NCBI GenBank assembly: GCA_965226885.1
Contig: CBDDEL010000015.1
Coordinates: 352,001 to 416,000 of the forward strand
Reading direction: 5' to 3'
Origin: Opitutales bacterium
GTDB taxonomy: Bacteria; Verrucomicrobiota; Verrucomicrobiia; Opitutales; UBA2987
Length of the DNA stretch: 64,000 bases
The position numbers and the translations under genes were made by a program. Below, one piece after another: positions 10 to 64,000 of this stretch (the stretch's first letter is position 1; every line of letters starts with the position of its first letter). The notes below the pieces were generated by a model, which was not told where the DNA came from, searched no databases, and saw nothing but the letters and a program-made list of their open reading frames with translations.

Positions 10-2907
10 GTGAGTATTTGCGATTGCATCGAATGGATGACGCCAATAAAAATCTGTATCGTGCATGGCAGTCTCAACATTCCGGTTGATTTTCTTCGAA
101 GGGACCCATTAAACGCTTCGTCCGGTAGCTTCCTCGTATGCTGCCTACTGCCCATTCTCCCGTTGACGGCCGCCAACGGTGAGTTCTGGACCGACACCGG
201 TGCGTCCTTCAATGACGGCACCCTGGGCAACTCCGGCCAGAATCTCTACGTTAACCGGTGGGGCGAACTGGAGATCATCCGCCGTTACGACATCGATGGC
301 AACGGCTACCTCGACCTACTGTTCAACAGTTCCCATGACAACTACCATGCCGTGCCGGCCACGTTGGCCACCATAATACCGGGACCAACTGTAAGAGTTA
401 CCAATCTCGGCGTGGACGGAAGCCGCCGCGTTATCCCCTACGATTTGAATCGGGACGGCTTTACCGATTTGGTCTTTATGCCCAACCTTCAGAACATCAA
501 GGAGGACCGAGCTTCGGTCATAATTGCCTGGGGCGCCGCCGATGGATGGAGAGCTGCCCGGCTGACCCGCCAGCTTCCCGGCAACAACATGGAAAGCCTG
601 GCCGTGGGGGACCTCGATGGCGACGGTTGGCCGGATATACTCACGCTTAACAGTGAAGGTTGGCTTTTCGGCCAACCACGTGGCCGAATTGTCCGCATTT
701 TTTGGGGCGGCCCGGAAGGCTATTTCCTGACCAATTATCAAGATCTTGGAATTCCCCGGGCGATCGAAGTTGTGGCTGGCGGCTTTGGGGCGCAGCGGGA
801 ATTTTCCGCCGCGGTTCTCGCTGATACCGGTGCGATCCACTATTTGGCGCCCACAGCCAATGGGACCGGCCTCCATCTCGCCCAAACCGTCCAGTTGCCT
901 GTCACGGGAGACGTTCCCGCCAAACCTCAATGCCTGCTCGCCCAGCCTGGCACGGGCCCTTCCGGCGACACCTTGTGGGTCGGCACCGATTCTCCTGTGC
1001 TGTTTCATGTCGGCGGCACGGGGCTTCCGGACAACTTCCAATCCATTGAAGCCCAACCCGCTACTCACCTGGCGCTCGGCCGCCTCGACAACGACCCGTG
1101 GCCCGACCTGGTGCTCACCAATTATCCCTTTTCCATTGCAGCAGCGATGTTGCACGCACCCGACCCCAACCCTTCGGTCACCGTCCTTTGGGGCGCTGCC
1201 GAGGGCTTGAGCACCGGGGGCAGCGTCGCCCTGTCAATTCCCAACGCGATATCGACTGCTATTGGCGACCTCAATACCGACGGTCATGGCGACTTGCTCG
1301 TATCGGTCCGTCAGGGCGATAAAACCATGAAAGCGTTCTCACGGGTGTATATGGGTGATGGCAGTCGCGAACTGCCCGCCACGGGTTTGCCCGTAGCTAC
1401 CGAGGGTGCGGAGGGTGTGGCGGTCGCAAAAATCACTCCGCAGTCCCAGCCCATGGCGATTTTCGCCAATAGCCTGGCCGCCACCCTGGATGCCGACGTG
1501 CCCCTGCATCTTTACTGGGGTTCGGCCGATGGTTTCTCCACCAAAGCGAGGACCGACATCCGAAATATCAGCGGTTATAAATCTAGCATCTCCGACCTCA
1601 ACAGCGATGGCCATGTCGACCTCATTTTCATAAACGCAAGTGGCGAGGTGAGTGAAGCGGACTTTGCGCGCATTCCTGAAGGGGGCGCTAACATATACTG
1701 GGGAGGAGATGAAGGAAGCATCCACGGCCCGGGACCCACGCGCTTCGATCCCGCCCGCCGCCAGATTCTCCGCGAGTCGGGCCTCGGCTCGATCAACGTC
1801 GCCGACCTCAACGGCGACAGTTTCCTCGACATAGTGCTAGGATCGTTTCAGTCCCCATCAAATCTGGTCATCTACTATGGCTCGGCCGCCGGCTTACTCC
1901 CCGAAAACCGTGTGGTGTTGCGCGTGCCCGACCGCTCGATCGGGTGCCTCATCGCCGACTTTAACCGCGATGGCAGCCTCGATATCATCGTCGGTGGCTA
2001 CAAAATAAACCGGATCTTCACCTATTGGGGTAGTGCCGGTGGCTACAGCGAAAGCAATAAGACCATACTACCTTACACGGCGCCCATCGACCTCGAGGCC
2101 GCCGACCTGAACGACGACGGCTGGCTCGATCTGATTGTGGCCAGTTATGATGACCCAGTAGCCGGACACCGCGACACCGGAAATTCCATCTTCTGGGGTG
2201 GGGCCGAAGGCTGGAGGCAGGCTGATTCGCAGTGGTTACAAGGGATGACCCCGATTGGGCTGGCCGTCGCCGACCTCGACGCAGACGGATTTCTCGACAT
2301 CGTCTCGCCGCACTATGCCGGTGATATAACGCGTGAACACATGCCCTCGTATATCTATTGGGGCTCCCCGCAGGGCTATGCGCCCTTGCAACGCACCTCC
2401 CTGACCGTCGACTCGGCATCTGAGGTCGTCATCGCCGACTTCGACCAGGACGGAAGACCCGACCTGGCTTTCACCGCGCACTCGGTCAATGCCGGCCACC
2501 GCACCGATACCCCAATCTACTTCAACGACGGCAACCGCTTCCAGTCGCCAAAGGTCCAATACCTGCCGGTATCCGGGCCACACTATATGTGGGTCCAGGA
2601 TATCGGCAACATCTACCACCGCCGCCATGAGGAGATCTTTACCTCGCGCGTTTTCACCTGGAAGAAAACCCGCCGGCACGGAGAAATCAAGATCGCCTCC
2701 GCCACGCCATTCGACTCCCGTGTCGGCCTTCATGTACGTAGCGCATTGGATGAAACCGCTATGGCCTCGGCGCGTTGGCGCGAAGTCTCCGGTGAATCGT
2801 TTGAAGTGTCCGGTGGCGATCGCATCCTCCAATATCGTCTCGACCTCATCAGTGCCAACGGCGATGCCTATCCACTCATCCGCAAAGTCGACCTCTCCCT
2901 CAGATGA
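10..2907 (+). CDS. Secreted 14-blade FG-GAP/VCBS-repeat protein, paralog 1 (start codon uncertain)
   Basis: Repeated D-[LF]-[ND]-x-D-G-x-x-D-L loops and IYWG motifs; hydrophobic leader FLVCCLLPILPLTAA; N- and C-terminal domains shared with 42769, 47277, 59241 and (N-terminus) 62097. Confidence 0.85.
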   Translation: MSICDCIEWMTPIKICIVHGSLNIPVDFLRRDPLNASSGSFLVCCLLPILPLTAANGEFWTDTGASFNDGTLGNSGQNLYVNRWGELEIIRRYDIDGNGYLDLLFNSSHDNYHAVPATLATIIPGPTVRVTNLGVDGSRRVIPYDLNRDGFTDLVFMPNLQNIKEDRASVIIAWGAADGWRAARLTRQLPGNNMESLAVGDLDGDGWPDILTLNSEGWLFGQPRGRIVRIFWGGPEGYFLTNYQDLGIPRAIEVVAGGFGAQREFSAAVLADTGAIHYLAPTANGTGLHLAQTVQLPVTGDVPAKPQCLLAQPGTGPSGDTLWVGTDSPVLFHVGGTGLPDNFQSIEAQPATHLALGRLDNDPWPDLVLTNYPFSIAAAMLHAPDPNPSVTVLWGAAEGLSTGGSVALSIPNAISTAIGDLNTDGHGDLLVSVRQGDKTMKAFSRVYMGDGSRELPATGLPVATEGAEGVAVAKITPQSQPMAIFANSLAATLDADVPLHLYWGSADGFSTKARTDIRNISGYKSSISDLNSDGHVDLIFINASGEVSEADFARIPEGGANIYWGGDEGSIHGPGPTRFDPARRQILRESGLGSINVADLNGDSFLDIVLGSFQSPSNLVIYYGSAAGLLPENRVVLRVPDRSIGCLIADFNRDGSLDIIVGGYKINRIFTYWGSAGGYSESNKTILPYTAPIDLEAADLNDDGWLDLIVASYDDPVAGHRDTGNSIFWGGAEGWRQADSQWLQGMTPIGLAVADLDADGFLDIVSPHYAGDITREHMPSYIYWGSPQGYAPLQRTSLTVDSASEVVIADFDQDGRPDLAFTAHSVNAGHRTDTPIYFNDGNRFQSPKVQYLPVSGPHYMWVQDIGNIYHRRHEEIFTSRVFTWKKTRRHGEIKIASATPFDSRVGLHVRSALDETAMASARWREVSGESFEVSGGDRILQYRLDLISANGDAYPLIRKVDLSLR

Positions 2908-3070
2908 CGCTCACCCCATTCCGGCGTTAAAGCGCATATCGCCAAGCGCAGAAAAGAGACGCTGCCGCCGACTTTATGGTTGGCCGAGAAGGAAATCCCA
3001 GCATGGATCCGGAGGATTTCATCATGAACAGAGCTATGGATGGGTCGGATTCGCGCTTCCCTAAATCGCG

Positions 3071-14606: not shown

Positions 14607-14615
14607 AAGGATTGG

Positions 14616-16163
14616 CTACCACCCAGAACCGGCATTTTCGACCGTATCCCCGTTTCCACCGAAGCGCAAAGCATACAGATCTGCGTCATGCAGGTGAAAT
14701 CGAAGTCGTACCGGTTTGCCAGCTAGTGAACTCACCTCCCGGCCACTGCGCCATCGAACTGGATATTCGATTGCATCGCCGAAAATTTCAGGACAGTCAG
14801 CGAGAGAAAATCCTTTGATGGGCGTGCCCTGGCTGTTCTGAATCTCCACCCGGATGCCGCCGGCCGCGGAAGTCGAATAGTTGATCGTCATTATGCCGCC
14901 TTCGAAGATGAGGGGTTTGGTGGTGAATTCGCCGCCTTGCAAGGGTGCGTAAACCGAGACGAAGCCGTCGATGCGCAGTGTGTAGCGCCGCAGTCTCGAG
15001 CTGTTGCCCGTAAAGTAACTTTCAGTGGCATAGAGGGATAGTTCCGGCGGCGAATCGTCATCCGCGGATTCCGTCTCCACGACATGCCAGGCCACATAAT
15101 TATCCCCATAGGCCCAGTTGTGCTGGGTGCGCAAGCCCGGGCGGAGGAAGGCCTCGTCCCAACGGTGAAAGGTTAAACCATCTCGGCTGGACATGAAGAG
15201 GGCGTCGGTCACGGCGGTCCCGTAGCGGCTGTTTGTCTGGGCGCGTTGCCTGCGAAGTTCCAGTGAAGGGAGGGCAATGGTGGCATCGGTCCAGCCGCGA
15301 TCCACGTACCTGGCCGGAAACCCGATCAAGAGGTGCTCGGCGCGGTAGTACGGTTTTATCTGGTTGGTATAAAGCTGCTCCATGGGTGCTCCTGGAAATC
15401 GCAGCCATTCTCGCTCCGACCAGTGAATGAAGTCATCGGATGTGGCCGTCATGATGCCCCGGCGTCCTTCGTGGAAATCGCGAATGTAAACGCGATATTT
15501 GCCAATGTTGGGGTCCCAGAACGCGATATTCTGCGTGTCGAATGGGTGCCCCGTCATGACCGGCCGGTTTTGGTTATAGAGGGTCCAGTGAATGCCGTCG
15601 GGGGACTTGAAAGCGTAGAGGCCGGCGGGGTTTGCGCCAAGACCCACGGCTTTATACTCTTCTCCCGGCATCACCTGCGGATTGGCATCCTTGAAAACAG
15701 AAAAGTCGTGACAGCCACTCCCGTTGATGGTGGCAAGGATGATATTGTTTTCCTTGGAACCTTCGTACTCGACTAGGCCGAGTTTCGGTTTGACCCAGTG
15801 GATGCCGTCCTGGCTTTGCGCATAGGCGATGAAGAGGGGATGCCCCTGGCCACCGTCTGACGGAATGTGCCAGGCATGATAATACATGCGGTAATCGTCG
15901 CCGTCCCGGAATACGGTATGGTAACCGCACGCGCTCCCCTCCCAAGGCTCATCGTGAACCATGGCAATTTCGCGACGCACCGGGTGATTGAGACGCAGTG
16001 CCGCCTCCCCTTTCATTTCTGCAATCAGGTGCTTGTCGACGAAAAGTTCCCGGTTTTGACCGATGTCGATGAGATCATTTCCGGCCTGGACACTCGTTGT
16101 CGCAAGCAAAGTTAAAAGCGAAAAAAGGGAGACCGTCCTTTCCACATAGACCCTACGCTTCAT
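14616..16163 (-). CDS. Secreted hypothetical glycoside-hydrolase-like beta-propeller protein
   Basis: Signal peptide; RELFVD, YRMYY, AQSQDGIHWVKP, FDTQN, SRDGLTF, LRIDGFVS and C-terminal LAGKPVRLRFHLHDADLYA. Confidence 0.65.
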   Translation of the reverse strand: MKRRVYVERTVSLFSLLTLLATTSVQAGNDLIDIGQNRELFVDKHLIAEMKGEAALRLNHPVRREIAMVHDEPWEGSACGYHTVFRDGDDYRMYYHAWHIPSDGGQGHPLFIAYAQSQDGIHWVKPKLGLVEYEGSKENNIILATINGSGCHDFSVFKDANPQVMPGEEYKAVGLGANPAGLYAFKSPDGIHWTLYNQNRPVMTGHPFDTQNIAFWDPNIGKYRVYIRDFHEGRRGIMTATSDDFIHWSEREWLRFPGAPMEQLYTNQIKPYYRAEHLLIGFPARYVDRGWTDATIALPSLELRRQRAQTNSRYGTAVTDALFMSSRDGLTFHRWDEAFLRPGLRTQHNWAYGDNYVAWHVVETESADDDSPPELSLYATESYFTGNSSRLRRYTLRIDGFVSVYAPLQGGEFTTKPLIFEGGIMTINYSTSAAGGIRVEIQNSQGTPIKGFSLADCPEIFGDAIEYPVRWRSGREVSSLAGKPVRLRFHLHDADLYALRFGGNGDTVENAGSGW

Positions 16164-16165
16164 AT

Positions 16166-17095
16166 TCACAGTTTCAACAATTCGGGAGTGTTCGCTTCCA
16201 TCCATGCTCGAAGTTCCTGCACGTCCTGGTCAGTGACGCTGAGGTAGGGGCCACGCGAACGCGCGCTCATTGTCAGGAACCCCGAGGTAACACCCATCAA
16301 CCGGTCGTAGGCTGTATCCGTGTAGCCTTTTTCTGTAAAGGGTCTCAATCCTTCGCGGACTAGCCGGTCCAGCATGTCCGTCCACGGATTCAGTTCGACC
16401 CACTTTTGACGCCGCATCAGATCGAACATGTGAAGTACAACCCTCGGATTCATGTAGACTAACGCGCTGGCGGCTCCAATGAGGCCGTGCGGACCCAGGC
16501 GGCTCCATTCATTCTCAGCGGCCCAAACATTGACGAACTCATTGAGTTCCCGGCATCCCTCCGGTGTCGCGCCCACCGTGCCCGCATTTGCCTTCACCGC
16601 GACATAGCAACCGGTGGCTTCAGAGACGGCGCGATGCTGGTCCACGGTAAGCGTTTTTTTCGCGCGCAATGTTTCGTAGATCGATAATGCCAGGCTTGGG
16701 CATGCATCGGTCACCTCTTGGAGAAAGGGAACGATCTGACGGTTGTCCAACTCCATCCAGAATGGCAAAGCCACCTGCACGGCGTCCGCCCCCACCTTTG
16801 CCGCATAGGCTGCCCGGCGTTGGGCACCCAGGGTGTAGGTGGAAGTGACGCCAATCATTACGGGAGTCCCGTGCTTCCGGCACTCCTCCACGGTCGCCTT
16901 GGTAACCGCCTTCCACTCGTCGAACTCCATGGCGTAGAACTCACCGGTTGTTCCCGCCGTGTAGACACCCGGAACACCTGCCTTGCATATCCGCTCGACT
17001 ACCGCGCGATAGGCCTGTTCATCGAACATCAGGTTCTCGTCCCAGGCAACTGGTAGGCCGGCCCAGGGCCCGATCATCTCATTACGTGATAGCAT
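16166..17095 (-). CDS. Dihydrodipicolinate synthase/N-acetylneuraminate lyase family protein
   Basis: AGTTGEF motif, Tyr in SIYET, likely Schiff-base Lys in VAVKAN. Confidence 0.85.
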   Translation of the reverse strand: MLSRNEMIGPWAGLPVAWDENLMFDEQAYRAVVERICKAGVPGVYTAGTTGEFYAMEFDEWKAVTKATVEECRKHGTPVMIGVTSTYTLGAQRRAAYAAKVGADAVQVALPFWMELDNRQIVPFLQEVTDACPSLALSIYETLRAKKTLTVDQHRAVSEATGCYVAVKANAGTVGATPEGCRELNEFVNVWAAENEWSRLGPHGLIGAASALVYMNPRVVLHMFDLMRRQKWVELNPWTDMLDRLVREGLRPFTEKGYTDTAYDRLMGVTSGFLTMSARSRGPYLSVTDQDVQELRAWMEANTPELLKL

Positions 17096-41720: not shown

Positions 41721-42509
41721 ATGATGCGCCAATCACTCATCATGAAACGCATCAGAGCCGGACAGCCCGCCTTGGTGGCCTGTCTTTGCACCCCCATTCC
41801 TTGGTTTCCCCATTACGCAAAGAAAAATGGATACGATGGGGTTTGGTTGGAAACGGAACACCACATGTGGGACAACCGTGAAATTCAGTCCTACCTCTCC
41901 AGGCACCAATCCAGCGGCATCGATTGCATGGTACGGCCGGCCAGCCGTTCCGAAAGTGAAGTTTACCGGCTCCTCGATAGCGGTGCGACCGGTGTTATGA
42001 TTCCCCATGTCGAGTCACCGGAGGAGGCGCAAACATACGTTAATTCAATTAAATTTCATCCCCTCGGCGATCGCGGAGTGGACGGTTATGGTTTGGATAC
42101 CGTATATGGTTTGGAAAAACCGGACGACTACTTTGAAGAGTCCAACCGGGAACGTTTTCTCTGCGTTATGCTGGAATCCCCCGAGGCGGTTAAACAGGCC
42201 GACGCCATAGCCGCCGTGCCGGGAGTCGATCTGTTATTTATCGGTCCGGCGGACTTGTTGAGCCGCATGGAATTGCCGATTGACATCACCCATCCCGCTT
42301 ATCTTGAAGCCCAGCGGGAAATCAGTCAAGCCGTCCGATCCCAGGGCAAAGCCTGGGGTTGCCCTTGCCCCAACCCGGCAGCGGCAAAAGCCGCTCTGTC
42401 AGCGGGCGCGGGGTTGGTCGTGATGGGAGGTGATTTTCTTATCATTATAAATGGTCTGGAAAAATCATCACAAGATTTCAGAGAGTGCCGAGACCAACTC
42501 GCGGAATAA
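41721..42509 (+). CDS. HpcH/HpaI aldolase family
   Basis: WLETEH, LDSGATGVMIPHV, PLGDRG, MLESPE, LFIGPADL. Confidence 0.9.
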   Translation: MMRQSLIMKRIRAGQPALVACLCTPIPWFPHYAKKNGYDGVWLETEHHMWDNREIQSYLSRHQSSGIDCMVRPASRSESEVYRLLDSGATGVMIPHVESPEEAQTYVNSIKFHPLGDRGVDGYGLDTVYGLEKPDDYFEESNRERFLCVMLESPEAVKQADAIAAVPGVDLLFIGPADLLSRMELPIDITHPAYLEAQREISQAVRSQGKAWGCPCPNPAAAKAALSAGAGLVVMGGDFLIIINGLEKSSQDFRECRDQLAE

Positions 42510-45755: not shown

Positions 45756-47255
45756 GTGCACCTGCACACTTTAGATTTCGTCGTCATCACCCTCTACCTC
45801 GTCGGCCTCCTGGGAGTTGGTTTTTTCTTTGCGGGCCGCCAGAAGGGCAAGGAAGACTACTTCCTCGGCAACCGGAAAATGCCCTGGTTTCTAGTCGGAA
45901 TCAGCGTCGTCGCAACTTTGCTTTCTACCGTAACCTACCTCGCGGTACCAGGGGAAATGATCCGTTATGGGATCGGGTTCGCATCTCTGCTCCTGTCCTT
46001 CATTTTTATCATTCCGTTCGTCAACCGGATCATCATTCCCTTTCTCATGAACCTGCGGGTGACGAGCGTTTACGAGTACATCGAAGAGCGCTTTAATGTG
46101 CAGACCCGCCTCCTGGCCGCTTCGGCCTTCATAATTTCCCGGATCATCTGGACGGGTTTGATCACCTACATGGCTTCCTTCGCCATTGCTTCCATGACCG
46201 GTTGGAATAAGCCCATGATTATACTGTTCATCGGTCTCATCACGACCGTATATACCTCCGCGGGCGGAATAAGGGCTGTCATGTGGACCGATTTTGCTCA
46301 GTTTGTCATCTTGTTTGGCGGGGCCTTGTTCGTTTTGTTATACATCGCCATCACTACCCATACCGGGCCGCTCACCTGGTGGGAGACCTTTTCCGCTGCC
46401 GGTAGAACCGAAGTGCCGGTATTCAGCCTGGACCCCGAAGTGCGGCTGACCATGGTGGGAATGATTGCTATCGGTTTTATCTGGAACATTTGCACCCATG
46501 GGGCCGACCAGGTAGCCGCTCAACGCTACCTGAGCACTCCCTCAGCCGCCGCCGCCCGACGCTCCGTCTGGATTTTTTCCATAGCAAACGTAGGCATGAT
46601 TTTGATCCTGATGGTTATCGGTCTGGCCCTCTTTTACTTCTTCTTCCTGAAATCCGGCCTCCCGGTACAGGAATTCCAGGAAAAAATCGCGCCCGAAGCG
46701 GACCAACTGTTTCCACGATTCATCGCAACAGAGCTACCTCCGGGAGTGTCGGGACTCATCCTGGCCGCTATTCTCGCTGCCGCAATGTCCAGCTTGAGTT
46801 CCGCTATCAATTCAATTTCCACAGTGGCGGTGACGGATTTTCTCGATCGTTTCAAAGTCCTCGAAAAGTACCAGGACCACCTCTACCTCGCTGTGGGGAT
46901 GGCGGTTTTAGGTGGTTTGCTGGGAATATTTTCCGCTCTCACCGTAAATCAATTCATGGAATCGGGAGAGTGGAATCTTCTGGAACTGACGGAACGCGCC
47001 AACCACCTCTTCGTAGCCCCACTGGCAGTTCTCTTTTTTGTCGGCATTCTTTTTCCCCGGGCCGACCCAAGGGCCGCCCTCGCCGGATTTTTCGCCGGTT
47101 TGGCAACCGCTATATTCGTCGCCTTCAGCAAGGAACTGTTTGGCATGGAAACCCCGATTGGTTTTATCTGGGTCCTCCCCGGATCCTTTTCAATCAGCTT
47201 TGTTGTCTCCTGGTTGATGAGCCTCGTCTTTCCCCAAAAACCTTCCGCCTCTTAA
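45756..47255 (+). CDS. Sodium:solute symporter (SSS) family transporter
   Basis: DYFLGNRKMPW, SVYEYIEERF, YTSAGGIRAVMWTD, DQVAAQRYL, AAAMSSLSSAINS. Confidence 0.95.
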   Translation: MHLHTLDFVVITLYLVGLLGVGFFFAGRQKGKEDYFLGNRKMPWFLVGISVVATLLSTVTYLAVPGEMIRYGIGFASLLLSFIFIIPFVNRIIIPFLMNLRVTSVYEYIEERFNVQTRLLAASAFIISRIIWTGLITYMASFAIASMTGWNKPMIILFIGLITTVYTSAGGIRAVMWTDFAQFVILFGGALFVLLYIAITTHTGPLTWWETFSAAGRTEVPVFSLDPEVRLTMVGMIAIGFIWNICTHGADQVAAQRYLSTPSAAAARRSVWIFSIANVGMILILMVIGLALFYFFFLKSGLPVQEFQEKIAPEADQLFPRFIATELPPGVSGLILAAILAAAMSSLSSAINSISTVAVTDFLDRFKVLEKYQDHLYLAVGMAVLGGLLGIFSALTVNQFMESGEWNLLELTERANHLFVAPLAVLFFVGILFPRADPRAALAGFFAGLATAIFVAFSKELFGMETPIGFIWVLPGSFSISFVVSWLMSLVFPQKPSAS

Positions 47256-47276: not shown

Positions 47277-50129
47277 ATGCTCACCTCCCGTTACCGCTCA
47301 TCAATTCTCCCCCTCGCGATAGCCTGCACTTTCTTCGCCGTTCCTTTCGGCCTCTCGGGCGAGTCCGAAAAAAAGGCAGACCAGCGGACCTCCGGGAAAC
47401 GTGCCTGGGTTACTCAATCCTGGGAAGATTTCGAGGCCGGCACTTTCTCCGACGGAGGGGTCAACATGTATGCCGCGGCCGACGGCACCCTCAGGTTGAT
47501 CAATCTCTGGGATCTGAATGGGGATGGCAATATCGAGCTTCTTCTTCCCAACTCCCATGGGTCCAACAGCAAGCCGGACCTCTATATTTATTGGGGGCGC
47601 GACGAATGGTCCGAGGATTCCCGGACCCGTCTGCCGGCGAATGGCGCCAAATCGGCCGCCGTGGCGGATTTCAATCTCGATGGCTGGCCGGATCTGGTGG
47701 TCGCAAACCGTTCTAATGGTATAAGGAATGACCTGGACAGCTTCATCTATTGGGGAAGCAAAACCGGCATGTCGCAGGAACGGCTAACCCGGCTACCGGC
47801 TGTAGGACCCGAGGCGGTAGCCGCCGCGGACCTGAACGGAGATGGCTTCCCCGAAATCGTCATAGCGAACAACGGGATGGGTTATCACGTCGCGGAAGAT
47901 TCGTTTCACCGGTCTTTTATTTACTGGAATCGGGAGGGCGCCTTTTCCCCCCAGGACCGGACCGAATTGGAAACATCCAATGCCCAAGGAGTTGCGGTAG
48001 GCGATTTCAACCAGGACGGAAAACTCGATATCGCCTTTGCTAATAAAGGAAACGAGGAGGGAGAGGCCGGCATCTTTATCTACCTGGCGCAGTTAAGGGG
48101 TGAATTCGCAGATCAACCCTCGATACACCTTCCGGGTGAGCGCAGCAGCGCCCTGGTTGCCCACGATCTGAACGGTGACGGCTGGCTCGATCTGGCCCTC
48201 GCAAACGCCTTTCGCCTTAAGGACCGCGAAGGTGGAATTTACGACATCGTGGATACGGTCGCTCTGGATTCCCCGGTTTATTGGGGCGGTCCGGATGGAT
48301 TTTCCGAGGAGCGCGCAACACTGCTTCCCACTGTCAGCCCGACGGCGGTGGACGCAGGGGATCTCAACGGTGATGGCTGGCCCGACCTGGTATTCGCGCA
48401 AACCGCAGGTGGACACAGCTTTGTTTACTGGGGCAGTCCGCAAGGACCGGCCCGGAACCGACGCTTGCAAATTCCGGGCGCCCATTCAGCCACCCGTATC
48501 GCGGACCTGGATGGCGATGGGCGCAATGACCTCATGCTTTCCACAAACGTAGTATCCGGATCCAGCGATGCCCCCACTACCATTTACCTAGGGCGGGACG
48601 ATGGCCTGTCGCTCAGCGATACCCTGGTGGTCCCCTCCTCGCATGCCGGCGGCCTGGTGGCCGCAGATCTGGATCTGGACGGAAAGAAGGATCTGGTCGT
48701 CATCAACATCTCGTCGGGAGGGGGCATTGGAGCCCCAGCCTACATCTACTGGGGGGAGCCGGACGGACGGTTTTCCCCATCCAACCTCACCCTGCTCCCC
48801 GGCACCCAAGGCTCGGGCTCCAATGCGGCGGCCGATTTCAACGCTGACGGACACGTTGACATTCTTATCGCGCAAAACCCTCCCATCATTTTCTGGGGAG
48901 GTGAGAAAGGCTTTTCAGAAGAGCGATCGGAAGCCCTACCCTCTGAACCCGGCTTTTCAGGACGAACCGCGGATTTCAATCGTGACGGGTATCTCGACCT
49001 GGCCATGAGCGAATGGGAACCAGGCAGCGATTCGACTCACCTTTATTGGGGAGGCCCGGGAGGTTATTCTAAGGCAAACAGCCAGACTTTCCCGATCGGG
49101 GGCGTCCGTTATCACACCATCGCGGATCTGAATCAAGACGGATGGGTGGACCTGCTTTATCCCAATTCCTCCGATCAATATGTAGCCATTTTCTGGAACG
49201 GGCCCAATGGGTTTGCGCCGGTTAAAGAGACACGGCTGCCCGCGCGAGCCACCGTCGTCATTGAAGTCGCCGACCTCAACGGGGATGGATTCCTTGATGT
49301 CATTGTTCCGAACATGTATGATAAAAATCCGGCTCCAGGTAAGACCCGGGCATTCGGGGGATCACCCGAGGGAGACACCTTTATCTACTGGGGAGGACCG
49401 GAAGGGCCGGACCCCGGCAACCGCACCGTGCTGCCATCCATCGGAGTGCACGACGCGGCCGTCGCCGATTTAAACCGGGACGGGCACCTCGATCTGGTTT
49501 TGACCTCCTATCACGCCGGGGTAACCCGTTCTCATCCCTCTTATATTTACTGGAACAGCGCCGAGGGGTTCGACACGCGCCGGGTAACGATGCTACCGAC
49601 CCATTCCGCCGCCGGAGTCCTGGTGGCCGACTTTGACCGCGATGATTGGCCGGATATCTTCTTTGCCAACCATACCCGCGATGGCAATCATACTAACGAA
49701 TCCTGGTTGTATTGGGGATCGGCCGATGGTTTTTCACAGACCCGGCGATTGTCTTTGCCCGGGCTTGGCCCGCACAACCTGACCGTAACCGATATCGGTC
49801 ATATTGCAGACCGAAGTGATATCTGGACCTACACCTCCCAGCCCTATTATGCCGGCTCCGGCTCCCGCTTTACTCGTCTGGAATGGGAGGCGGATACCCC
49901 GCACCGCACTCGGGTCGCCTTCCAGGTCCGCGCCGCCTCCGATAGCGAGGCCCTGGGTGATGCCCCCTGGACCGGACCCAAGGGTCCGGATTCCTTCTGG
50001 GATACTTCCGGGGCCCGTCTGCCCGGTTCCCTTTCTCCGAACGCCTGGGTGCAATACCGTATCCGGCTGATTAGCCCGAATTCCGCTAATTCCCCGATCG
50101 TGCGGTCCGTCACTCTTTATCACCGCTGA
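47277..50129 (+). CDS. Secreted 14-blade FG-GAP/VCBS-repeat protein, paralog 3
   Basis: Signal peptide; WVTQSWEDFEAG..NMYA; 14 DxN/DxDG loops; C-terminal WEADTP..FQVRA..VQYRIRL. Confidence 0.88.
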   Translation: MLTSRYRSSILPLAIACTFFAVPFGLSGESEKKADQRTSGKRAWVTQSWEDFEAGTFSDGGVNMYAAADGTLRLINLWDLNGDGNIELLLPNSHGSNSKPDLYIYWGRDEWSEDSRTRLPANGAKSAAVADFNLDGWPDLVVANRSNGIRNDLDSFIYWGSKTGMSQERLTRLPAVGPEAVAAADLNGDGFPEIVIANNGMGYHVAEDSFHRSFIYWNREGAFSPQDRTELETSNAQGVAVGDFNQDGKLDIAFANKGNEEGEAGIFIYLAQLRGEFADQPSIHLPGERSSALVAHDLNGDGWLDLALANAFRLKDREGGIYDIVDTVALDSPVYWGGPDGFSEERATLLPTVSPTAVDAGDLNGDGWPDLVFAQTAGGHSFVYWGSPQGPARNRRLQIPGAHSATRIADLDGDGRNDLMLSTNVVSGSSDAPTTIYLGRDDGLSLSDTLVVPSSHAGGLVAADLDLDGKKDLVVINISSGGGIGAPAYIYWGEPDGRFSPSNLTLLPGTQGSGSNAAADFNADGHVDILIAQNPPIIFWGGEKGFSEERSEALPSEPGFSGRTADFNRDGYLDLAMSEWEPGSDSTHLYWGGPGGYSKANSQTFPIGGVRYHTIADLNQDGWVDLLYPNSSDQYVAIFWNGPNGFAPVKETRLPARATVVIEVADLNGDGFLDVIVPNMYDKNPAPGKTRAFGGSPEGDTFIYWGGPEGPDPGNRTVLPSIGVHDAAVADLNRDGHLDLVLTSYHAGVTRSHPSYIYWNSAEGFDTRRVTMLPTHSAAGVLVADFDRDDWPDIFFANHTRDGNHTNESWLYWGSADGFSQTRRLSLPGLGPHNLTVTDIGHIADRSDIWTYTSQPYYAGSGSRFTRLEWEADTPHRTRVAFQVRAASDSEALGDAPWTGPKGPDSFWDTSGARLPGSLSPNAWVQYRIRLISPNSANSPIVRSVTLYHR

Positions 50130-50244: not shown

Positions 50245-51332
50245 TTGACAGTGTCCAGATTATTCGGCCGCACCTACTCCAAGCAGCAACTCCGAGACCG
50301 TACGGGTGACATGAGCCAACTGGCCGGCGCCCGCTACGCTCACCTTGTCGAAGGCAATGAGCGCGGCGCCGACCTCATCGAAGTCTTCAACGCATCAGGT
50401 CTGTGCTTCTCGGTGCTGCCCGGCCGCTCCCTGGACATCGCTTCAGCCCACTTCAAGGGCATGTCCCTGTGCTTCCGCGGCAATACCGGCGACGTCGGCC
50501 CGGCCTTCTACGAACCCCAGCGCGCCGGCTGGATGCGCGGCTTCTTCGGCGGCCTGGTCACCAGCTGCGGCCTGATTTTTGTCGGGCACCCGGAGACAGA
50601 CCCCGAGGAGGAGAATGAGGAGCTTGGCCTGCACGGCCGTCTCTCCTTCATCGCGGCCAAAGGTGTCGTTGCCGATTGCGATTGGCAACACGAGGAATAT
50701 GTTGTAAAGGTCCGTGGCCGCATACGCGAAGCCGTCGCATTGCATTCGGCACGGACTTGGAACTCAGGCGCGAGATCAGCACCGTCCTGGGAGAGAAATG
50801 CCTACGCATTCACGACCGCGTCGAAAACCTGGGCGCCGACCGCTCGCCTTTGATGTTCGTCTACCACAGCAATCCCGGCTTTCCGCTTTTGGACGCCGGT
50901 GCGCGCCTCGTGCTGCACAGCCGCTTGAGCACCGCGAGGAGCGACGGCCGGCAAGTCCTTCCCGAGGAATATACCATAGCCAAAGGACCGCGGAAGAAAA
51001 TGCGCGACGATGTCTATCTGCACCGCCCCATGGCCGATAAAGACGGCAATGTGCATGTCGGCCTGATCAACGATAAGCTGGCCTTGGGCCTCTATTGGAA
51101 GTTCCCCATCGCCGAGCTCCCCATCCTCAACCACTGGCAGCACTTCCACCGGGGCACCTACGTCACAGGCATCGAGCCGGGCAACACCTCAGTGCTGGGG
51201 CGGAAGTGGAACCGTGAGCATGGCACCCTGCAGTACATCGGACCGGGCGAAATACGGCATTTCCACTTGGAAATCGGAGTCCTTGAGGGCAAGAAGGAGA
51301 TCGCCAATTTCGAGCGTATGGTGGCGCCCTAA
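50245..51332 (+). pseudogene. Aldose 1-epimerase-like (DUF4432) protein, frameshifted
   Basis: VLPGRSLDI, GLVTSCGL, LHGR in the first frame; DRVEN..YHSNPG..YVTGIEPG in the second; 5-bp duplication gcatt 50737-50746 at the switch. Confidence 0.85.
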
Positions 51333-51464: not shown

Positions 51465-52595
51465 TACCAAATCGCAAAAGGATTGATAAAGATTAAAAAA
51501 CAGCTATAAAGGCGGAATGAGAAGATATATGGGAACCGATGAAGACCGTGAACGTATCAAGAAATTGCTCAACAAAGAGGCTGTCGGCTGGCGTAAAGAG
51601 CGTTTGGTGGCATTAAAAATGGGCTTCCAGCCGCACCACAGCATTGATGAAATTGGAGCCATCGTGGGCCGAGGCAAAGCGACGATCCAGCGTTGGTTTG
51701 ACAAATATCGTGCTGCAGGGCTCGGGGCGGTGCTTACACGCGCCTACAAAGGCGGGATCAAAAGCCGTTGCGACAAAGAGGTGGAGGCCTTCTTGCTCAA
51801 TGGTTTGAAGGTCGCGCGCTGGAACACAGCCGTTCAGGCGGGGCAAGAGCTGGAGCGACATTTCGGGCGCTCCTTCGCCTACAAGACGGTGTGGCGATGG
51901 CTAAAAAAATGCGCCGGGGTGCTTCGAGTCCCTCGCCCCGTGCATGAGAAACGGGACTCGGCAAAAGCGGAAGCGTTCAAGCGAGACTTTTTTAAGATCC
52001 TCCAGGAGCTTTCCCTCACCCGAGGCAATCGGGTTCGGGTGTGGTTTGCCGATGAAAGCCGTTTTGGTTTGCTTCCGGTGTACCGCCGGTGCTGGACGCA
52101 AAGAGGGCTTCGGCCGCACAAAAAATATCAGACAAGATACCAGTGGAGCTACTGTTACGGAGCCCTCGACGTGGTCAACGGCGAGATGGTATGCATCCAA
52201 ACCCCTAGCACGAATCTACAGTGGACGGAGGCTTTCCTCCAACAGATCAAAAAGCAATATCCTGAGGAGGAACATGTGGTTGTATGGGACGGGGCAGGCT
52301 TCCATCCGCACGACTCGGAGCACCCCAACGTCCCCCCGGGCATACATATCGTGAATTTGCCGCCGTATAGTCCTGAACTCAACCCGATTGAAAGACTTTG
52401 GGATATGATACAGGATCAAACGGCCAACAAACTGTGGCCGAGCATTGAGCGACTCGAAGAAGTCGTCGCAACCCATCTCAAAGACTGGTGGGAGGACACT
52501 GAAAAAGTCCTCTCTTTAGTTGGCGGAGGCTGGCAGCACATTCAAGCAAACGCTTCTGCCAAATAACTTATTATCATACCTAATGAGATTTGGTA
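51465..52595 (+). mobile_element. IS630-family insertion sequence, complete (1131 bp)
   Basis: IRs TACCAAATCGCAAAAGGATTGATAA / TACCAAATCTCATTAGGTATGATAA (20/25); TTA on both flanks (51462-51464, 52596-52598). Confidence 0.93.
51517..52566 (+). CDS. IS630-family transposase
   Basis: N-terminal HTH; WFADESRFG, VWDGAGFH, LPPYSPELNPIERLW (DDE). Confidence 0.95.
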   Translation: MRRYMGTDEDRERIKKLLNKEAVGWRKERLVALKMGFQPHHSIDEIGAIVGRGKATIQRWFDKYRAAGLGAVLTRAYKGGIKSRCDKEVEAFLLNGLKVARWNTAVQAGQELERHFGRSFAYKTVWRWLKKCAGVLRVPRPVHEKRDSAKAEAFKRDFFKILQELSLTRGNRVRVWFADESRFGLLPVYRRCWTQRGLRPHKKYQTRYQWSYCYGALDVVNGEMVCIQTPSTNLQWTEAFLQQIKKQYPEEEHVVVWDGAGFHPHDSEHPNVPPGIHIVNLPPYSPELNPIERLWDMIQDQTANKLWPSIERLEEVVATHLKDWWEDTEKVLSLVGGGWQHIQANASAK

Positions 52596-54173
52596 TTAGG
52601 GATCGGGTTTTTCTTCGCGGGCCGCCAGAGGGACAAGGAATCCTACTTCCTCGGCAACCGGAAGATGCCCTGGTTTCTGGTCGGAATCAGCGTCATAGCA
52701 ACGATTCTCTCGACCGCGAGTTACGTGGCTGTACCCGGAGAAATGATCCGATATGGTGTCGGATTTTCAGCCTCCCTTCTGGCCTTCATCCTTATTATTC
52801 CGTTTGTGAACCGGATCATCATTCCATTTCTCATGAATTTGTCCGTCACGAGCGTTTACGAGTATATCGAAGAGCGCTTCAGTTTGCCGACCCGCATCCT
52901 CGCCGCTTCGTCCTTTATATTTGCCCGTCTCATCTGGAGCGGCCTGATCATCTACATGGCTTCCTTCGCCATTGCGGCCATGACCGGCTGGAACAAACCC
53001 CTGGTTATCCTGTTCATCGGTCTCATCACGACGGTTTACACCTCCGCGGGTGGAATCACTGCGGTCATATGGAGTGATTTCGCGCTGTTTGTCATCCTGT
53101 TGGGCGGGGCTATATTCGTGCCGGGATACATCGCCATCGCCACCGACGCGGGTCCCCTCGCCTGGTGGGAAACCTTTTCCGCGGCAGGCAGAACCGAGGT
53201 GCCTGTATTCAGCCTCGACCCTGGGGTGCGGCTGACCATGGTGGGAATGATCGTCTCCAGTTTTATTTGGAACATCTGCACTCATGGGGCTGACCAAATA
53301 GCCGCCCAACGCTACCTGAGCACCCCCTCCGTTGCAGCCGCCCGCCGCTCGGTCTGGATTTTTTCCATCGCAAGCGTAGGCATGATTTTGCTTCTGATGC
53401 TTGTTGGGTTGGCCCTTTCTTTCTTTTTCTTCGAGCAATCCGATCTCACGGTCCAGGAATTCCAGGAAAGTATCGCTCCTCAAGCGGACCAGATGTTTCC
53501 CCGGTTCATCGCAAACCAGCTTCCTCCGGGAGTGTCCGGATTGATCCTGGCCGCCCTTCTCGCCGCCGCCATGTCCAGCCTGAGTTCGGCTATCAATTCC
53601 ATTTCCACGGTGGCGGTTACCGATTTCCTGGATCGCTTCAAAGTTCTTCAGAAATACCAGGACCACCTCTACCTCGCTGTCGGCATGGCGGTTTTAACCG
53701 GGCTGCTCGGGGTAATTTCCGCTTTAACCATAAACCAGTTCATGGAAACGTCGGAATGGAATCTCCTTGAACTGATGCAACGCCTCGACCACCTCTTCGT
53801 CGCCCCGTTGGGGGTTCTCTTTTTTGTGGGCTTTCTTTTTCCCCGGGCCGATACGCGGGCCGCCCTCACCGGGTTCATCGCCGGTGTGGCCACCAGTGTA
53901 TCCATCGCTTTCAGCAAGTCGCTTTTCGGCCTGGAACAACCAATCGGGTTCATCTGGGTCATTCCTGGATCCTTTTTCATAAGCTTTGTTGTCTCCTGGT
54001 TGATGAGCCAGTTCTTACCCAGAAAATCACTCACTCCCTGAATCTATACTTCCATTCTTCCCGTTCACGGTATTGAATTTCCTCTCAACCACACCAAGCT
54101 GGAGGGCCGCTGGGCAGAAGGCGGTGCCAAGTTCATGGATATCGGACAGAATTCTAAAGAGAGGTGATTTCGG

Positions 54174-56275: not shown

Positions 56276-56299
56276 GATGATTAACCTATCTTAGTTCTC

Positions 56300-56523: not shown

Positions 56524-59187
56524 GTGAATATTATCAGCGCGATAATAAAAACCGCTTTCGAAATGAACGATGGCCCGCCCGGTCGCGACCATCATCGGAT
56601 GTCTGCTCGGTATTCAACGCCTGTATCGGCGATGTCCTGCCGCATTGCGCTTGCCTGTGGGTTGTTGATCATCGGCGCCGCTCGTGGCGAACCGGGGCGG
56701 GGGCAGTCGACTCTAGTAGAATGGAATCTTGAAGCGCCATTCCCCTACGTTCATGGAGGGACCAGAACCTGGCCCATTTTTCGCGGGCTGTTGCCTGAAG
56801 GAACCGGTATTACCCTGACCGCGCGGCACGATGATGAGCTGCTGGGCGAGGGAGAAGTGTTACATTTCTCCGGTTTTCGCATTTCGATCAACCAACAGGA
56901 TCATCTTCAGGTGACTTCGGAGCAGGCCAGTCCGATGATGTCGTTCGAACTGGAGGTCGCACTAAGTTGGCCAGACGGCGCCTCTGAGTCGCAAAAACTG
57001 GAGGTGCGCCCAGCGCCGCCGAATCGGCCCATTTCCTACGTGGCCGATTTCATAGACGACATTATCAGTATCTTCCAGACTTCGAATGGCATGGGATTCC
57101 GCAATATCGAAAAGAGTGCTTTTGATCAATACTTTCGGCGGTTGCAGGCACAAGGAATTACCCGCCTTATCGTCTGGCTGTTTCCATTTCCCTTTATAGT
57201 CGATCCGGGAAATTACCCGGTTGAGGATTGGGACCGCTATGAAAAGCAGGCCCGCGCGATCCTCGAAAGCAAAGAGCTTACCAAAGCATTTCAAGAGCAT
57301 GGGAAATCCGTCAGCTGGGTGTGGATAAGGAAGCAACTCGAGCTGCGCCTCATGAAAAACTTCGGTGCCCTGCTGTCTGATAGCGCCATCGACCACGGTA
57401 TCTCCCTGACAGTTAGCTTTCGGCCGTTTGAAGCCGCAGTCACCAAATTCATCAATCCGGTCCCCGTTTTTGACAGCGACGGGAGATTTCTCTGGAATTT
57501 CCTGCCTATTGCGACCCCGATCGTCAACTACCACCCGGATCAAGCTTGCTTTGCCCACTACCGTACCATCCTGGGCGAAATGGGATTGTCGGATTTCGGA
57601 AAAATCGATACTATCGAAATACCAGGAGTGCAAAATGCTGATGCTTTTCTGAAACGATTTCTTGCCCAGCGAGATAATCTGAAAATACTGGCAAGTGAAT
57701 TCGCTCCCCTGCGCGAAGATACCTTTGTCCTGCGCCGCCGTCAGGACGGTTCTTTCGAGACTCTTCGCTTTCGTGAAATCCAACCCGAGGTCGAAAAAGC
57801 CCTTCATGTCGTAACCGGCTACAATATAGAACCTGCTGAAAACGACAGTCTAAGAATCACCGGCTTGGATGTTCCCAATCACTGCGGATTTATACTTCTC
57901 ACGAATCCTGCCGAGGTCCCGGAGGCGCTCGATCTTTCAGCGCGCGAACCTGTCAGGTTGTATTCCAAGACCGGTACGCGCCTGGGCCGTAAAAACGTCT
58001 GGTGGGTCCTGAACGACAGCACCGAGCAGCGCAGGAAAACGCTAGTTGCGGGTATCTCTCCTGAAAACGGGGATAATACCGATTTTTTTACTACCGAGCG
58101 CAGTTTGGAGTTCCTAAGGGCCGGGCCGGGCCGGCTGCAGTTGATCGACAACATCCTCGTGATCGATCGCGGGGCGCCGTGGTCGGTGGAAATGATGGAT
58201 TTTAACCAGGCGCCCATGAGGCAAAACGTCGTGAGAGAGTTGAGAACCGTGCTTTCATATCCGGCTTTCGACGAAATCTTCATCAACACCCGGTCTCATA
58301 CCCAGTTGGCCGGTTATATGGGCGATGGCGAGCTGGGCATTCGGCCCGGCGCCTGGTATCGCGACAAAAATATGAACTACAAACACCTTGGAATCGATCT
58401 GGCGTACGCGCCCCGTACCGTAGCACGGGCGGCTCGATTTCGAAAGCTGGCATCCGATCCCAGCACCGTCGAACAGATTACGACGAACCAGGCTGGGGAA
58501 TGGAATGAGACCTGCCAATCGCCCGATTCACCTTATTGCTGGCGTTACACCCGCAATCAGGAGATCGCCCAAGGCGTGCGGAAATTGCTTGTCGACCTTC
58601 AACAGACCTTTCCCGGCGTGCGGATCCGCGCGGTTATACCCGAACGCGAGCGTGTTTTTCACGCCGTCAAAGAGGAAGTCGCTAAAGATAGTTTGGTAGA
58701 GGACGCCGAGCAAAACGTTGCTACCTATGGCCAACTCTACGGCTTGGACTGGTACCACAACTTCTGGCGCAGAACGAATCACATTCCATCTCTTTGTGAA
58801 GGCATGGCGCTGTTGGACCTCACGGGGCTTTCGGTTGAACCGGTGTTTCTGGGCATCCGCCACTTGCCGGCGCAACGGCCTCTTGATTTCTATCTACGAG
58901 AGTGCATCAAGGATATGACAGATAATCATGGCTCAGACTTTCAGGGGCCCCGCAGCTTTTTCTATGAAACCAACCCCACTTTCAGCTTCGAGCCGGCAGC
59001 GCAGGCCCGACGTCGCCGAGAACAAATCGTCTGCTATCTGTTGTCTCATAAGCGAGATATTAACGAAGTGATTCTCTACGAAGCCGCGACTTTGGTGTGG
59101 CACCTGGATATTTCCGACCCTGATCTCTACGGCCACGGTTTTCTGGACCATGCTGATGAGATACTCAGCGAACTTGACATACCGTAG
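56524..59187 (+). CDS. Large secreted hypothetical protein (start probably further downstream)
   Basis: 887-aa ORF; signal-like IALACGLLIIGAARG; no family recognised. Confidence 0.75.
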   Translation: MNIISAIIKTAFEMNDGPPGRDHHRMSARYSTPVSAMSCRIALACGLLIIGAARGEPGRGQSTLVEWNLEAPFPYVHGGTRTWPIFRGLLPEGTGITLTARHDDELLGEGEVLHFSGFRISINQQDHLQVTSEQASPMMSFELEVALSWPDGASESQKLEVRPAPPNRPISYVADFIDDIISIFQTSNGMGFRNIEKSAFDQYFRRLQAQGITRLIVWLFPFPFIVDPGNYPVEDWDRYEKQARAILESKELTKAFQEHGKSVSWVWIRKQLELRLMKNFGALLSDSAIDHGISLTVSFRPFEAAVTKFINPVPVFDSDGRFLWNFLPIATPIVNYHPDQACFAHYRTILGEMGLSDFGKIDTIEIPGVQNADAFLKRFLAQRDNLKILASEFAPLREDTFVLRRRQDGSFETLRFREIQPEVEKALHVVTGYNIEPAENDSLRITGLDVPNHCGFILLTNPAEVPEALDLSAREPVRLYSKTGTRLGRKNVWWVLNDSTEQRRKTLVAGISPENGDNTDFFTTERSLEFLRAGPGRLQLIDNILVIDRGAPWSVEMMDFNQAPMRQNVVRELRTVLSYPAFDEIFINTRSHTQLAGYMGDGELGIRPGAWYRDKNMNYKHLGIDLAYAPRTVARAARFRKLASDPSTVEQITTNQAGEWNETCQSPDSPYCWRYTRNQEIAQGVRKLLVDLQQTFPGVRIRAVIPERERVFHAVKEEVAKDSLVEDAEQNVATYGQLYGLDWYHNFWRRTNHIPSLCEGMALLDLTGLSVEPVFLGIRHLPAQRPLDFYLRECIKDMTDNHGSDFQGPRSFFYETNPTFSFEPAAQARRRREQIVCYLLSHKRDINEVILYEAATLVWHLDISDPDLYGHGFLDHADEILSELDIP

Positions 59188-59240
59188 GGAATGGAAATTT
59201 ATCTTGCCCCAGGCATTGATCTTCCAATCAACTATCAAGA

Positions 59241-62042: not shown

Positions 62043-62096
62043 CGGGGAGCAGAACCCTGTCTACAATCTGCCAAATCAAAAATGTGGGGCAATATT

Positions 62097-64000: not shown

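Follow-up and report, generated by a model that had tools for sequence, protein, structure and literature searches.

What do large repeat proteins do when a bacterial genome carries them in many copies among enzymes for sugar acids and secondary transporters? The question is raised by a stretch of 64,000 nucleotides from an Opitutales bacterium (assembly GCA_965226885.1, contig CBDDEL010000015.1, positions 352,001-416,000 of the forward strand). We call this stretch the window and give coordinates in its numbering. The source organism is described as a marine Opitutales and has a genome size of 5.48 Mb. The window encodes five paralogous proteins, P0001 to P0005, composed of calcium-loop repeats of the FG-GAP/VCBS type. 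The original prediction, made from the window alone, interpreted them as fourteen-bladed secreted metalloenzymes with an invariant site of four histidines. We estimate a probability of about one half that the paralogs are exported, probably periplasmic enzymes of an undescribed FG-GAP/VCBS family, with a pocket formed by blades 13, 14, and 1 and by the segment that closes the second of two propeller rings.

Paralogs in the window and in the genome

The five genes are located on the plus strand. The open reading frame (ORF) of P0001 (10..2907, 965 residues as read) is open at the 5' edge of the window, and the ATG at position 37 is its likelier start. P0002 (42769..45660) has 963 residues, P0003 (47277..50129), which served as the modeled reference, has 950, and P0004 (59241..62042) has 933. 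P0005 (62082..64000, with the likely start at 62097) is cut by the end of the window. Its gene extends to approximately 64922, and the complete gene, par9 among the copies of the genome, encodes the C-terminal module and the full motif set. P0002 to P0005 share 24-40% identity with P0001 in alignments over the whole length.

All five paralogs start with a hydrophobic N-terminus, followed by a W-x5-F-x2-G...N[LIM]Y cap and by blade 1, which ends with [ST]H. A motif scan of the translations located every string of the original prediction at its place. The blade-1 motifs are SSHD, STHD, NSHG, NTHD, and NSHD in P0001 to P0005, respectively. In the four complete proteins, P0001 to P0004, blade 13 contains Y-x5-R (YAGDITR, YNAIATR, YHAGVTR, and YRSNDSR), and blade 14 contains H-x5/6-H (HSVNAGH, HSSNNGH, HTRDGNH, and HSDNEGNH). 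The closing segment G[PT]H...D-x-G[NH]...R and the C-terminal QYR were found at equivalent positions, and P0001, P0002, and P0004 contain the full His/Tyr/Arg motif set. The predicted plan of fourteen blades, some of them degenerate in the first two paralogs, agrees with the number of DxDxDG loops. P0003 and P0004 have fourteen DxDxDG blades, and P0001 and P0002 have only ten intact loops each, and therefore some of their blades are degenerate.

The predicted number of five paralogs holds for the window, whereas the genome carries 13 full-length copies, ten of which are on the same contig. They were identified using a profile that spans blade 14 through the C-terminal domain, including the closing segment (profile A3). 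The 13 ORFs are 925-1051 codons long, and 12 of them encode a signal-like hydrophobic N-terminus. Of 150 other genomes sampled from the same phylum, some of which were incompletely scored, only four had a match with E<=1e-20, with one or two copies each. The 13 copies thus represent a lineage-specific expansion. Two copies from outside of the window contain exact in-frame tandem duplications at their N-termini: YHRISIK is present twice in par5 (C15:421097-423967), and SGVYAT twice in par7 (C15:341311-344208). The SGVYAT unit occurs once in par6, which is otherwise near-identical in the N-terminal region.

Two seven-bladed rings in one chain

The AlphaFold2 model of P0003, calculated from an alignment of 79 sequences (A2), has a predicted local distance difference test (pLDDT) score of 92.9 and a predicted template modeling score (pTM) of 0.90. 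The N-terminal cap and blade 1 comprise residues 40-108 (47394..47600, plus strand, as are all segments of P0003) and include H94 (codon 47556-47558). Blades 2-8 (residues 109-480; 47601..48716) form a contiguous seven-bladed ring, delimited by structural alignment ranges. Blades 9-14 (residues 481-830; 48717..49766) are predicted to close a second ring together with blade 1. They contain Y745 (codon 49509-49511), R751 (49527-49529), H799 (49671-49673), and H805 (49689-49691). The closing segment G-P-H833...D839-x-G841...R846 (residues 831-846; 49767..49814) is followed by a C-terminal jelly-roll β-sandwich (residues 847-950; 49815..50126) with conserved residues R885, W898, and Q926.

The topology of the rings was read from the ranges of structural alignments and not from the coordinates of the model. 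In a structural search against representatives, residues 109-480 were matched by most seven-bladed chains, including the LGI1 EPTP domain (Z 31.1, 304 residues aligned), integrin alpha (Z 29), and CRTAC1 (Z 27.0). In this same search (VIA), aldos-2-ulose dehydratase (AUDH, 4a7k) tied for the best match and was aligned to residues 109-481 (Z 30.9, root-mean-square deviation 3.1, 343 residues aligned). The seven-bladed structures 1l0q, 6nau, 3hfq, and 8bn0 align approximately 290-303 residues across a range that begins at residue 81 or 85 and ends between 836 and 939. Since alignments of about 300 residues over this range skip the 372-residue first ring, blade 1 and blades 9-14 form a second ring. 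The model and the alignment ranges therefore support the originally proposed arrangement of two seven-bladed calcium-loop rings, in which blades 2-8 are inserted into a discontinuous ring of blade 1 and blades 9-14.

The description of the inserted ring as variable did not hold. The mean pairwise identity of blades 2-8 is 0.415, which is not below the 0.407 of blades 9-12, and only the loss of calcium loops is more common in blades 2-8. The corresponding values are 0.495 for the cap with blade 1, and 0.485 for blades 13-14 with the closing segment, which makes these the best conserved segments of the chain.

A whole-model Foldseek search listed AUDH first (E 1.3e-12, template modeling (TM) score 0.21-0.23), with DDB1, SF3B3, and integrins also among the top matches (TM 0.14-0.30). 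Scores in this range reflect a resemblance among multi-propeller proteins only, and we assigned no function from these matches. The C-terminal 108 residues folded alone form a jelly-roll sandwich with a pLDDT of 90.9. We also rejected a specific fold assignment of this domain, because its best matches, to PirA, phage tail tips, GOLD, and CBM32/discoidin-like domains, reach a Z of 7.4, which is within the noise band.

A conserved His/Tyr/Arg site at the ring closure

Conservation was evaluated in a family-profile alignment of 92 rows, composed of the 13 paralogs of the genome, 78 ORFs from 79 loci, and P0003 repeated as a reference (91 distinct ORFs). H799 and H805 are present in 92/92 rows and H833 in 90/92. 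Y745 and D839 are each conserved in 91 of the 92 rows, R751 in 90. G841, R846, W898, and Q926 are invariant (each 92/92), and R885 is present in 91/92. H94 is retained in 83 of 89 rows and replaced by Gln in six, the remaining three rows being truncated. Among 67 long (>=850 residues) representatives at 50% identity, H799 is found in 64, H805 in 62, and H833 in 59. As judged from the alignments, the family-wide core consists of three histidines and a fourth position that is either His or Gln.

The original claim of four invariant histidines is weakened: H799, H805, and H833 are near-invariant, but H94 can be replaced by Gln, and two paralogs of the same genome have lost H833. The expected conservation in homologs was confirmed, as the His, Tyr, and Arg residues are kept across at least three phyla. 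Polar columns conserved to at least 93% beyond the repeat consensus (D, G, YWG, and LP) are confined to blades 13-14, the closing segment, and the C-terminal domain, with the exception of R569, which is positioned inside the calcium loop of blade 10. The conservation of the site far exceeds the repeat consensus.

According to DSSP analysis of the model, H799 directly follows strand B and H805 directly precedes strand C of blade 14, and H833 is three residues past strand D. Y745 and R751 belong to the B-C loop of blade 13, and H94 to the B-C region of blade 1. In propellers, the A-B and C-D loops are on one face, and the B-C and D-A loops on the other. The DxDxDG loop is the A-B loop in the VCBS/FG-GAP superfamily, as stated in the accessible text of PMC8023676. 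Together, these positions place all six residues on the face opposite to the calcium loops, on three neighboring blades. We therefore predict that H94, Y745, R751, H799, H805, and H833 are located on one face of blades 13, 14, and 1 in the discontinuous ring.

Single-ring relatives and deviant copies

In a survey of the best 150 representatives, 124 contained the whole C-terminal module, of which 67 were long (>=850 residues) and 57 shorter. The short rows are a mixture of N-terminally truncated gene calls and complete single-ring proteins. The complete single-ring proteins P0147, P0179, P0214, and P0228 have approximately 520-680 residues and their own signal peptide or cap, and are without the histidines; the single-ring protein P0150 retains H833 only. 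The positions of the triad 799/805/833 in single-ring proteins read, for example, NKS, GPT, or RHS. In the short rows, G841, R846, and R885 are present in 57/57, and W898 and Q926 in 56/57. Candidates for single-ring carriers of the triad (P0151, P0159, P0196, P0197, and P0198, among others) were rejected, since they proved to be N-terminally truncated gene calls.

Since both the closing segment and the C-terminal domain are present in single-ring relatives that lack the histidines, the latter are not needed for the fold. By comparison of the sequences, these two parts are features of a broader set of proteins, and the His/Tyr/Arg set is a specialization that goes with the double-ring architecture. 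This restriction argues against a purely structural role of the set.

In such a role, the histidines, through a metal or a hydrogen-bond network, would lock together the discontinuous ring, the closing segment, and the C-terminal domain, and the functional surface would be elsewhere. Such a lock would be consistent with the placement of the residues at the point where the ring closes (blades 14 and 1) and in the stretch before the C-terminal domain, as well as with the occurrence of the histidines in double-ring forms, which have an extra insertion to stabilize. However, in the single-ring relatives, closure of this ring and docking of this C-terminal domain are achieved with none of the histidines, Y745 and R751 are in blade 13, away from the closure, and there is no other conserved polar patch to serve as an alternative functional surface. 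We consider the purely structural explanation highly improbable.

Two of the 13 copies in the genome deviate from the consensus of the site. Par12 carries the substitutions H94Q, H833R, and D839H and is also devoid of the signal-like N-terminus. Par11 carries R751G and H833S. In these two deviant sequences, residues of the site are lost jointly.

Family size, distribution, and annotation

At least 1001 clusters at 90% identity in public data are related to residues 700-950 of P0003. The A3 profile matched 3109 clusters at 50% identity with E<=1e-3, 1102 with E<=1e-10, and 403 with E<=1e-30; the blade part of the profile also matches unrelated FG-GAP proteins, and only the strict counts describe the family. 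The loci originate from metagenome-assembled genomes labeled as Opitutales or Opitutaceae, Acidobacteriota (Terriglobia, 'Versatilivorator', Bryobacteraceae, and Aminicenantes), Planctomycetota, and Acidimicrobiia. Cultured carriers include Schlesneria paludicola DSM 18645 (locus L079) and Lacunisphaera. Where the proteins are named in public sources, they are called 'hypothetical', 'VCBS repeat', or 'FG-GAP-like repeat'.

The five proteins of the window match Pfam FG-GAP_3 (PF13517) with E values of 1.4e-42 to 2.6e-81 and FG-GAP (PF01839) with E values down to 3.2e-51. The paralogs are members of the FG-GAP/VCBS superfamily, since they have both its repeat and its seven-bladed fold. Pfam and NCBIfam searches with the paralogs identified nothing family-specific beyond FG-GAP. 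Matches to TcdB_toxin_midN, PliI, Dockerin, XAC2610, and FusH were rejected as sub-threshold matches to the calcium-loop repeats. A phmmer search of the PDB returned CRTAC1 as the sole match (E 7.8e-4), and a profile search of the PDB (60 matches with E<=1) identified only CRTAC1 (9etn, E 4.5e-12) and integrins (alpha-V, E of approximately 1e-10). The ESM Atlas contained FG-GAP clusters only, and the literature searched, which comprised papers outside of subscription, had no paper on this family. The family is large, real, and uncharacterized, and the supposition that it is new agrees with the lack of a match to a characterized protein, beyond generic FG-GAP, in Pfam, NCBIfam, the PDB, the ESM Atlas, and this literature.

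Since most of the characterized FG-GAP/VCBS proteins bind ligands (integrins, PVL lectins, and CRTAC1), and integrins and CRTAC1 are the sole sequence-level matches in the PDB, the paralogs could be non-catalytic binders such as lectins, proteins for periplasmic capture or scavenging, or adhesins. Their pocket, with or without a metal, would then bind an anionic ligand, and the paralogs would diversify in specificity. The resemblance of the C-terminal domain to CBM32/discoidin-type jelly rolls, at a Z of at most 7.4, and the transporter genes adjoining those of the paralogs are consistent with binding. However, at identities of 24-40%, it is rare for the binding sites of paralogs to retain six or seven of the same polar residues in three phyla, and 13 copies within islands of catabolic genes are what is usually seen with substrate-specific enzymes. 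Furthermore, SSF and MFS transporters, which are the neighbors in question, are not known to depend on binding proteins. We regard non-catalytic binding as rather unlikely.

Gene neighborhood

P0002 and P0003 belong to a co-directional string composed of an HpcH aldolase gene, P0002, an SSF symporter gene, P0003, a frameshifted DUF4432 gene, an insertion sequence (IS), a second SSF gene, and an aldo-keto reductase gene. The HpcH/HpaI-family aldolase (41721..42509, plus strand), encoded directly upstream of P0002, is GarL/HpaI-like, with scores below the equivalog cut-offs. The first SSF sodium:solute symporter (45756..47255, plus strand) is located between P0002 and P0003, and the second (52590..54041, plus strand) further along the same string. 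The order propeller-SSF-propeller recurs in two Opitutales loci (L003 and L006). The DUF4432 gene (50245-51332, plus strand), directly downstream of P0003, is split into ORFs that match positions 2-125 and 125-304 of the profile. At their overlap (approximately 50748-50757), GCATT is present twice in tandem, which constitutes a 5-bp duplication.

A second co-directional string contains the gene for an 887-residue protein (56524..59187, plus strand), positioned 54 bases upstream of P0004, followed by P0004 and P0005. The 887-residue protein has no Pfam or NCBIfam match even at an E of 1. A single strong homolog is encoded in an acidobacterial locus (L035, E 3e-258), and the matches of the protein in the Atlas are 'hypothetical' clusters and a weak GHL6/GHL10-type glycosidase-like lead, to be read as a lead only (score 0.81-0.82). 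A 529-residue protein (14616..16205, minus strand) belongs to no family and has weak GH130/GH32N-like signals (E 1e-4 to 5e-4). Its homologs are found in 16 of the 79 loci with a member of the propeller family, in some of them directly adjacent (L029, L048, L075-L078), and it may be a conserved partner of the propeller family.

Other genes of the window encode three DHDPS-family proteins, two enolase-superfamily dehydratases, UxuA, a GFO/IDH/MocA protein, a 3-keto-disaccharide hydrolase, and a BNR protein, as well as a broken sulfatase, a TonB receptor, PhyH dioxygenases, a cupin, and a GntR/PBP regulator. The context of the paralogs is that of an extracytoplasmic step in a catabolic route that ends in a secondary transporter. 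In this genome, the context points more to acid sugars, without fixing the substrate.

Several genes in this region are broken or rearranged. The sulfatase gene (17137-18890, minus strand) is split into two overlapping ORFs, which match the N- and C-terminal parts of the Pfam Sulfatase profile. At their junction (approximately 18033-18054), there are two perfect tandem copies of TCTTGGCGCAG, and this 11-bp duplication causes a frameshift. On the same contig just past the window, a phosphotriesterase-family gene (L081:2750-3822) and a peptidase M19 gene (L081:3962-5093) are further broken genes, each present as two ORFs that match consecutive portions of the respective Pfam profile. A gene for a DDE_Tnp_1_4 transposase of 456 residues (window 11694-13902, minus strand) adjoins a GFO/IDH/MocA gene in which the NAD-binding domain is reduced to its end. 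Near-identical 456-residue transposases are encoded beside four other paralogs elsewhere in the genome, and IS copies therefore surround the propeller gene family.

Two further groups of genes were identified in the window. The segment 18945-23916 (minus strand) contains a copper amine oxidase gene, an acetoacetate-decarboxylase-family gene, and an M20 peptidase gene in a row. This row adjoins two enolase-superfamily genes and a PhyH dioxygenase gene, and forms a catabolic block of the amine or amino-acid type inside the sugar-acid island. The segment 33721-37184 (plus strand) encodes a separate FG-GAP protein of 761 residues, with six FG-GAP matches and without the C-terminal module of the family, and its gene is directly followed by a DUF4915/TIGR03032 gene (E 2e-143).

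Proposed function

As enzymes, the paralogs would have their pocket on the side of the discontinuous ring that faces away from its calcium loops, formed by the B-C loops of blades 13, 14, and 1 and by the closing segment. The pocket would hold H799, H805, H833, the fourth His or Gln (H94), Y745, R751, and D839. We speculate that the most likely reaction is the cleavage of a carboxylate-bearing sugar or glycan. The cleavage could proceed by β-elimination, with the arginine as a charge neutralizer and a histidine or tyrosine as the base and acid, as in the polysaccharide lyase (PL) families PL24, PL25, and PL42. Alternatively, a divalent metal could be bound by H799, H805, and H833, with or without H94 or D839. 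In our assessment, a metal-free His/Tyr/Arg lyase site would fit the residues as well as a site with a metal on three histidines. The adjacent sodium:solute symporters would import the products, which would then be fed to the neighboring acid-sugar enzymes, and the 13 paralogs would differ in substrate. The analysis establishes the existence of the family, its topology, its conservation, and its gene context, and from these the grouping of the site residues, catalysis, and the class of substrate are inferred.

In favor of this proposal are the model with its alignment ranges, the conservation of the site, the single-ring relatives without the histidines, the joint loss of site residues in par11 and par12, the signal-like N-termini, the gene context, the comparable catalytic residues of PL24, PL25, and PL42, and the presence of AUDH, an enzyme, among the best structural matches. 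Several other observations weigh against it. We infer the clustering of the site residues from the register of the blades and not from coordinates. Structural matches with Z of 25-31 are obtained with any seven-bladed propeller, also with integrins, LGI1, WD40 proteins, and others that are not enzymes, and AUDH matched the inserted ring (109..481) and not the ring that bears the conserved site. R846, R885, W898, and Q926 persist in the relatives without histidines, so that a common function of the wider group may not need the histidines. The surveys of other loci also count here. Near the other copies in the genome, SSF, HpcH, aldo-keto reductase, DUF4432, PhyH, MR_MLE, BNR, and NanM/Kelch genes are found again, but so are genes for DAO, PALP, a β-eliminating lyase, AstE/AspA, M19, M81, an amidase, and an amidohydrolase. 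The recurrence of homologs of the window neighbors among the 79 foreign loci (SSF 15, HpcH 15, GFO/IDH/MocA 15, PhyH 14, and DHDPS 10) speaks for the proposal, but these counts are not independent, as the loci include many orthologous ones from closely related metagenome-assembled genomes.

We also scanned two genes on each side of the family member in 24 diverse loci from other genomes using Pfam. Transporters near the family members were SSF in three loci, MFS in four, and xanthine/uracil permeases in two. The enzymes were heterogeneous, with TPP enzymes in three loci, creatininase, M19, and NanM/Kelch in two each, and amidase, gamma-glutamyltranspeptidase, DAO, PALP, M20, DHDPS, PhyH, SGL, and others in one each, many of them of the amino-acid or amide type. 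A classical glycoside hydrolase or PL was not found as a consistent neighbor within these four positions in the 24 loci, and we therefore rejected a classical polysaccharide-utilization locus.

The amide-type neighbors raise the alternative that the paralogs are enzymes for non-carbohydrate substrates. A metal on three histidines, together with Tyr and Arg, would serve to convert a small compound, either nitrogenous or derived from a peptide, in a reaction of the amidating-lyase, lactonase, or amidohydrolase type, and the product would be imported by the neighboring SSF, MFS, or xanthine/uracil-type permeases. Besides the M19, creatininase, amidase, and related genes of the foreign loci and of the genome itself, an Orn/Arg decarboxylase and a dimethylformamidase-like protein among the foreign neighbors are in line with such substrates. 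Nevertheless, the paralogs of the window are flanked by genes of the acid-sugar type (HpcH/GarL-like, DHDPS/KdgD-like, enolase-superfamily dehydratases, UxuA, and aldo-keto reductase), the unknown proteins that recur near the family are weakly glycosidase-like, and no single amide-type neighbor is conserved across phyla. A nitrogenous substrate therefore appears to us quite improbable.

If the paralogs are enzymes acting on acid sugars or glycans, they might constitute a new carbohydrate-active class of lyases or hydrolases. In this class, three histidines with a fourth His or Gln, Tyr, and Arg would form the active site at the ring closure, assembled from blades 13, 14, and 1, the closing segment, and the jelly-roll domain, and the propeller inserted after blade 1 would be a substrate-selecting lid. 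The 13 copies would be substrate-specific, and the class would be spread through Acidobacteriota and Planctomycetota. We put this forward tentatively, as a possibility that is somewhat doubtful in its full extent.

The family is unusual in its propeller-in-propeller architecture and in having a conserved site where the ring closes. Its carriers, from Opitutales, Acidobacteriota, and Planctomycetota, are abundant, mostly uncultured heterotrophs of sea and soil, known as degraders of complex organic matter. If the proteins are enzymes, an entire class of extracytoplasmic catalysts goes unnoticed in current annotation, and the expansion to 13 copies beside symporters would mark unrecognized substrate-utilization loci. 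A propeller inserted in a propeller, with the conserved residues at the closure, would also represent a novel construction of a propeller active site.

Comparison with known systems

Bacterial integrin-type FG-GAP propellers and CRTAC1 belong to the same repeat family as the paralogs. However, they have a single seven-bladed ring without H-x5-H, GPH, Y-x5-R, or the C-terminal domain of the paralogs, and their known roles are in binding. The uncharacterized single-ring relatives (P0147, P0150, P0179, P0214, and P0228) share with the paralogs the cap, seven blades, D-x-G...R, and the C-terminal residues R885, W898, and Q926, but differ in having neither the inserted ring nor the His triad.

The PL11 rhamnogalacturonan lyases YesW and YesX have eight-bladed propellers, whereas the rings of the paralogs are seven-bladed. 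There was no PL11 chain among the 60 PDB profile matches with E<=1 or the 50 VIA matches listed, with which a distant kinship would still be compatible. Propellers with a metal on three histidines are known from PL22. Peptidyl-hydroxyglycine amidating lyase is also a propeller, with zinc bound by three histidines and with a catalytic Tyr and Arg.

AUDH from Phanerochaete chrysosporium is, like each ring of the paralogs, a VCBS-type seven-bladed calcium-loop propeller, and there the propeller is a domain of an enzyme. The AUDH propeller binds zinc. It is followed by cupin and lectin domains in a bifunctional dehydratase/isomerase, whereas no cupin or other domain was identified in the paralogs using Pfam. 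We rejected the identification of the paralogs as AUDH, because of the missing cupin, the global TM of 0.21-0.23, and the restriction of the match to the propeller. AUDH is listed as a member of the VCBS superfamily in the accessible text of PMC8023676.

PL24, PL25, and PL42 lyases are single propellers of the BNR/Asp-box type without DxDxDG loops, unlike the paralogs, and the paralogs had no BNR-type or lyase match in Pfam at E<=0.01 and no such chain in the PDB at E<=1. Genes for the processing of unsaturated uronates, such as KduI and KduD, were not identified near the paralogs. According to the accessible text of PMC8377490, the representatives LOR_107, PLSV_3936, and FoRham1 of these families are seven-bladed and use an Arg neutralizer and His/Tyr catalysts, with a conserved His nearby, on the anterior face of the propeller. 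As far as this text describes them, the same types of residues are conserved in the paralogs, where the blade register assigns them to the side with the B-C and D-A loops. PL24, PL25, and PL42 act on uronate-containing glycans, which fits the acid-sugar genes beside the paralogs.

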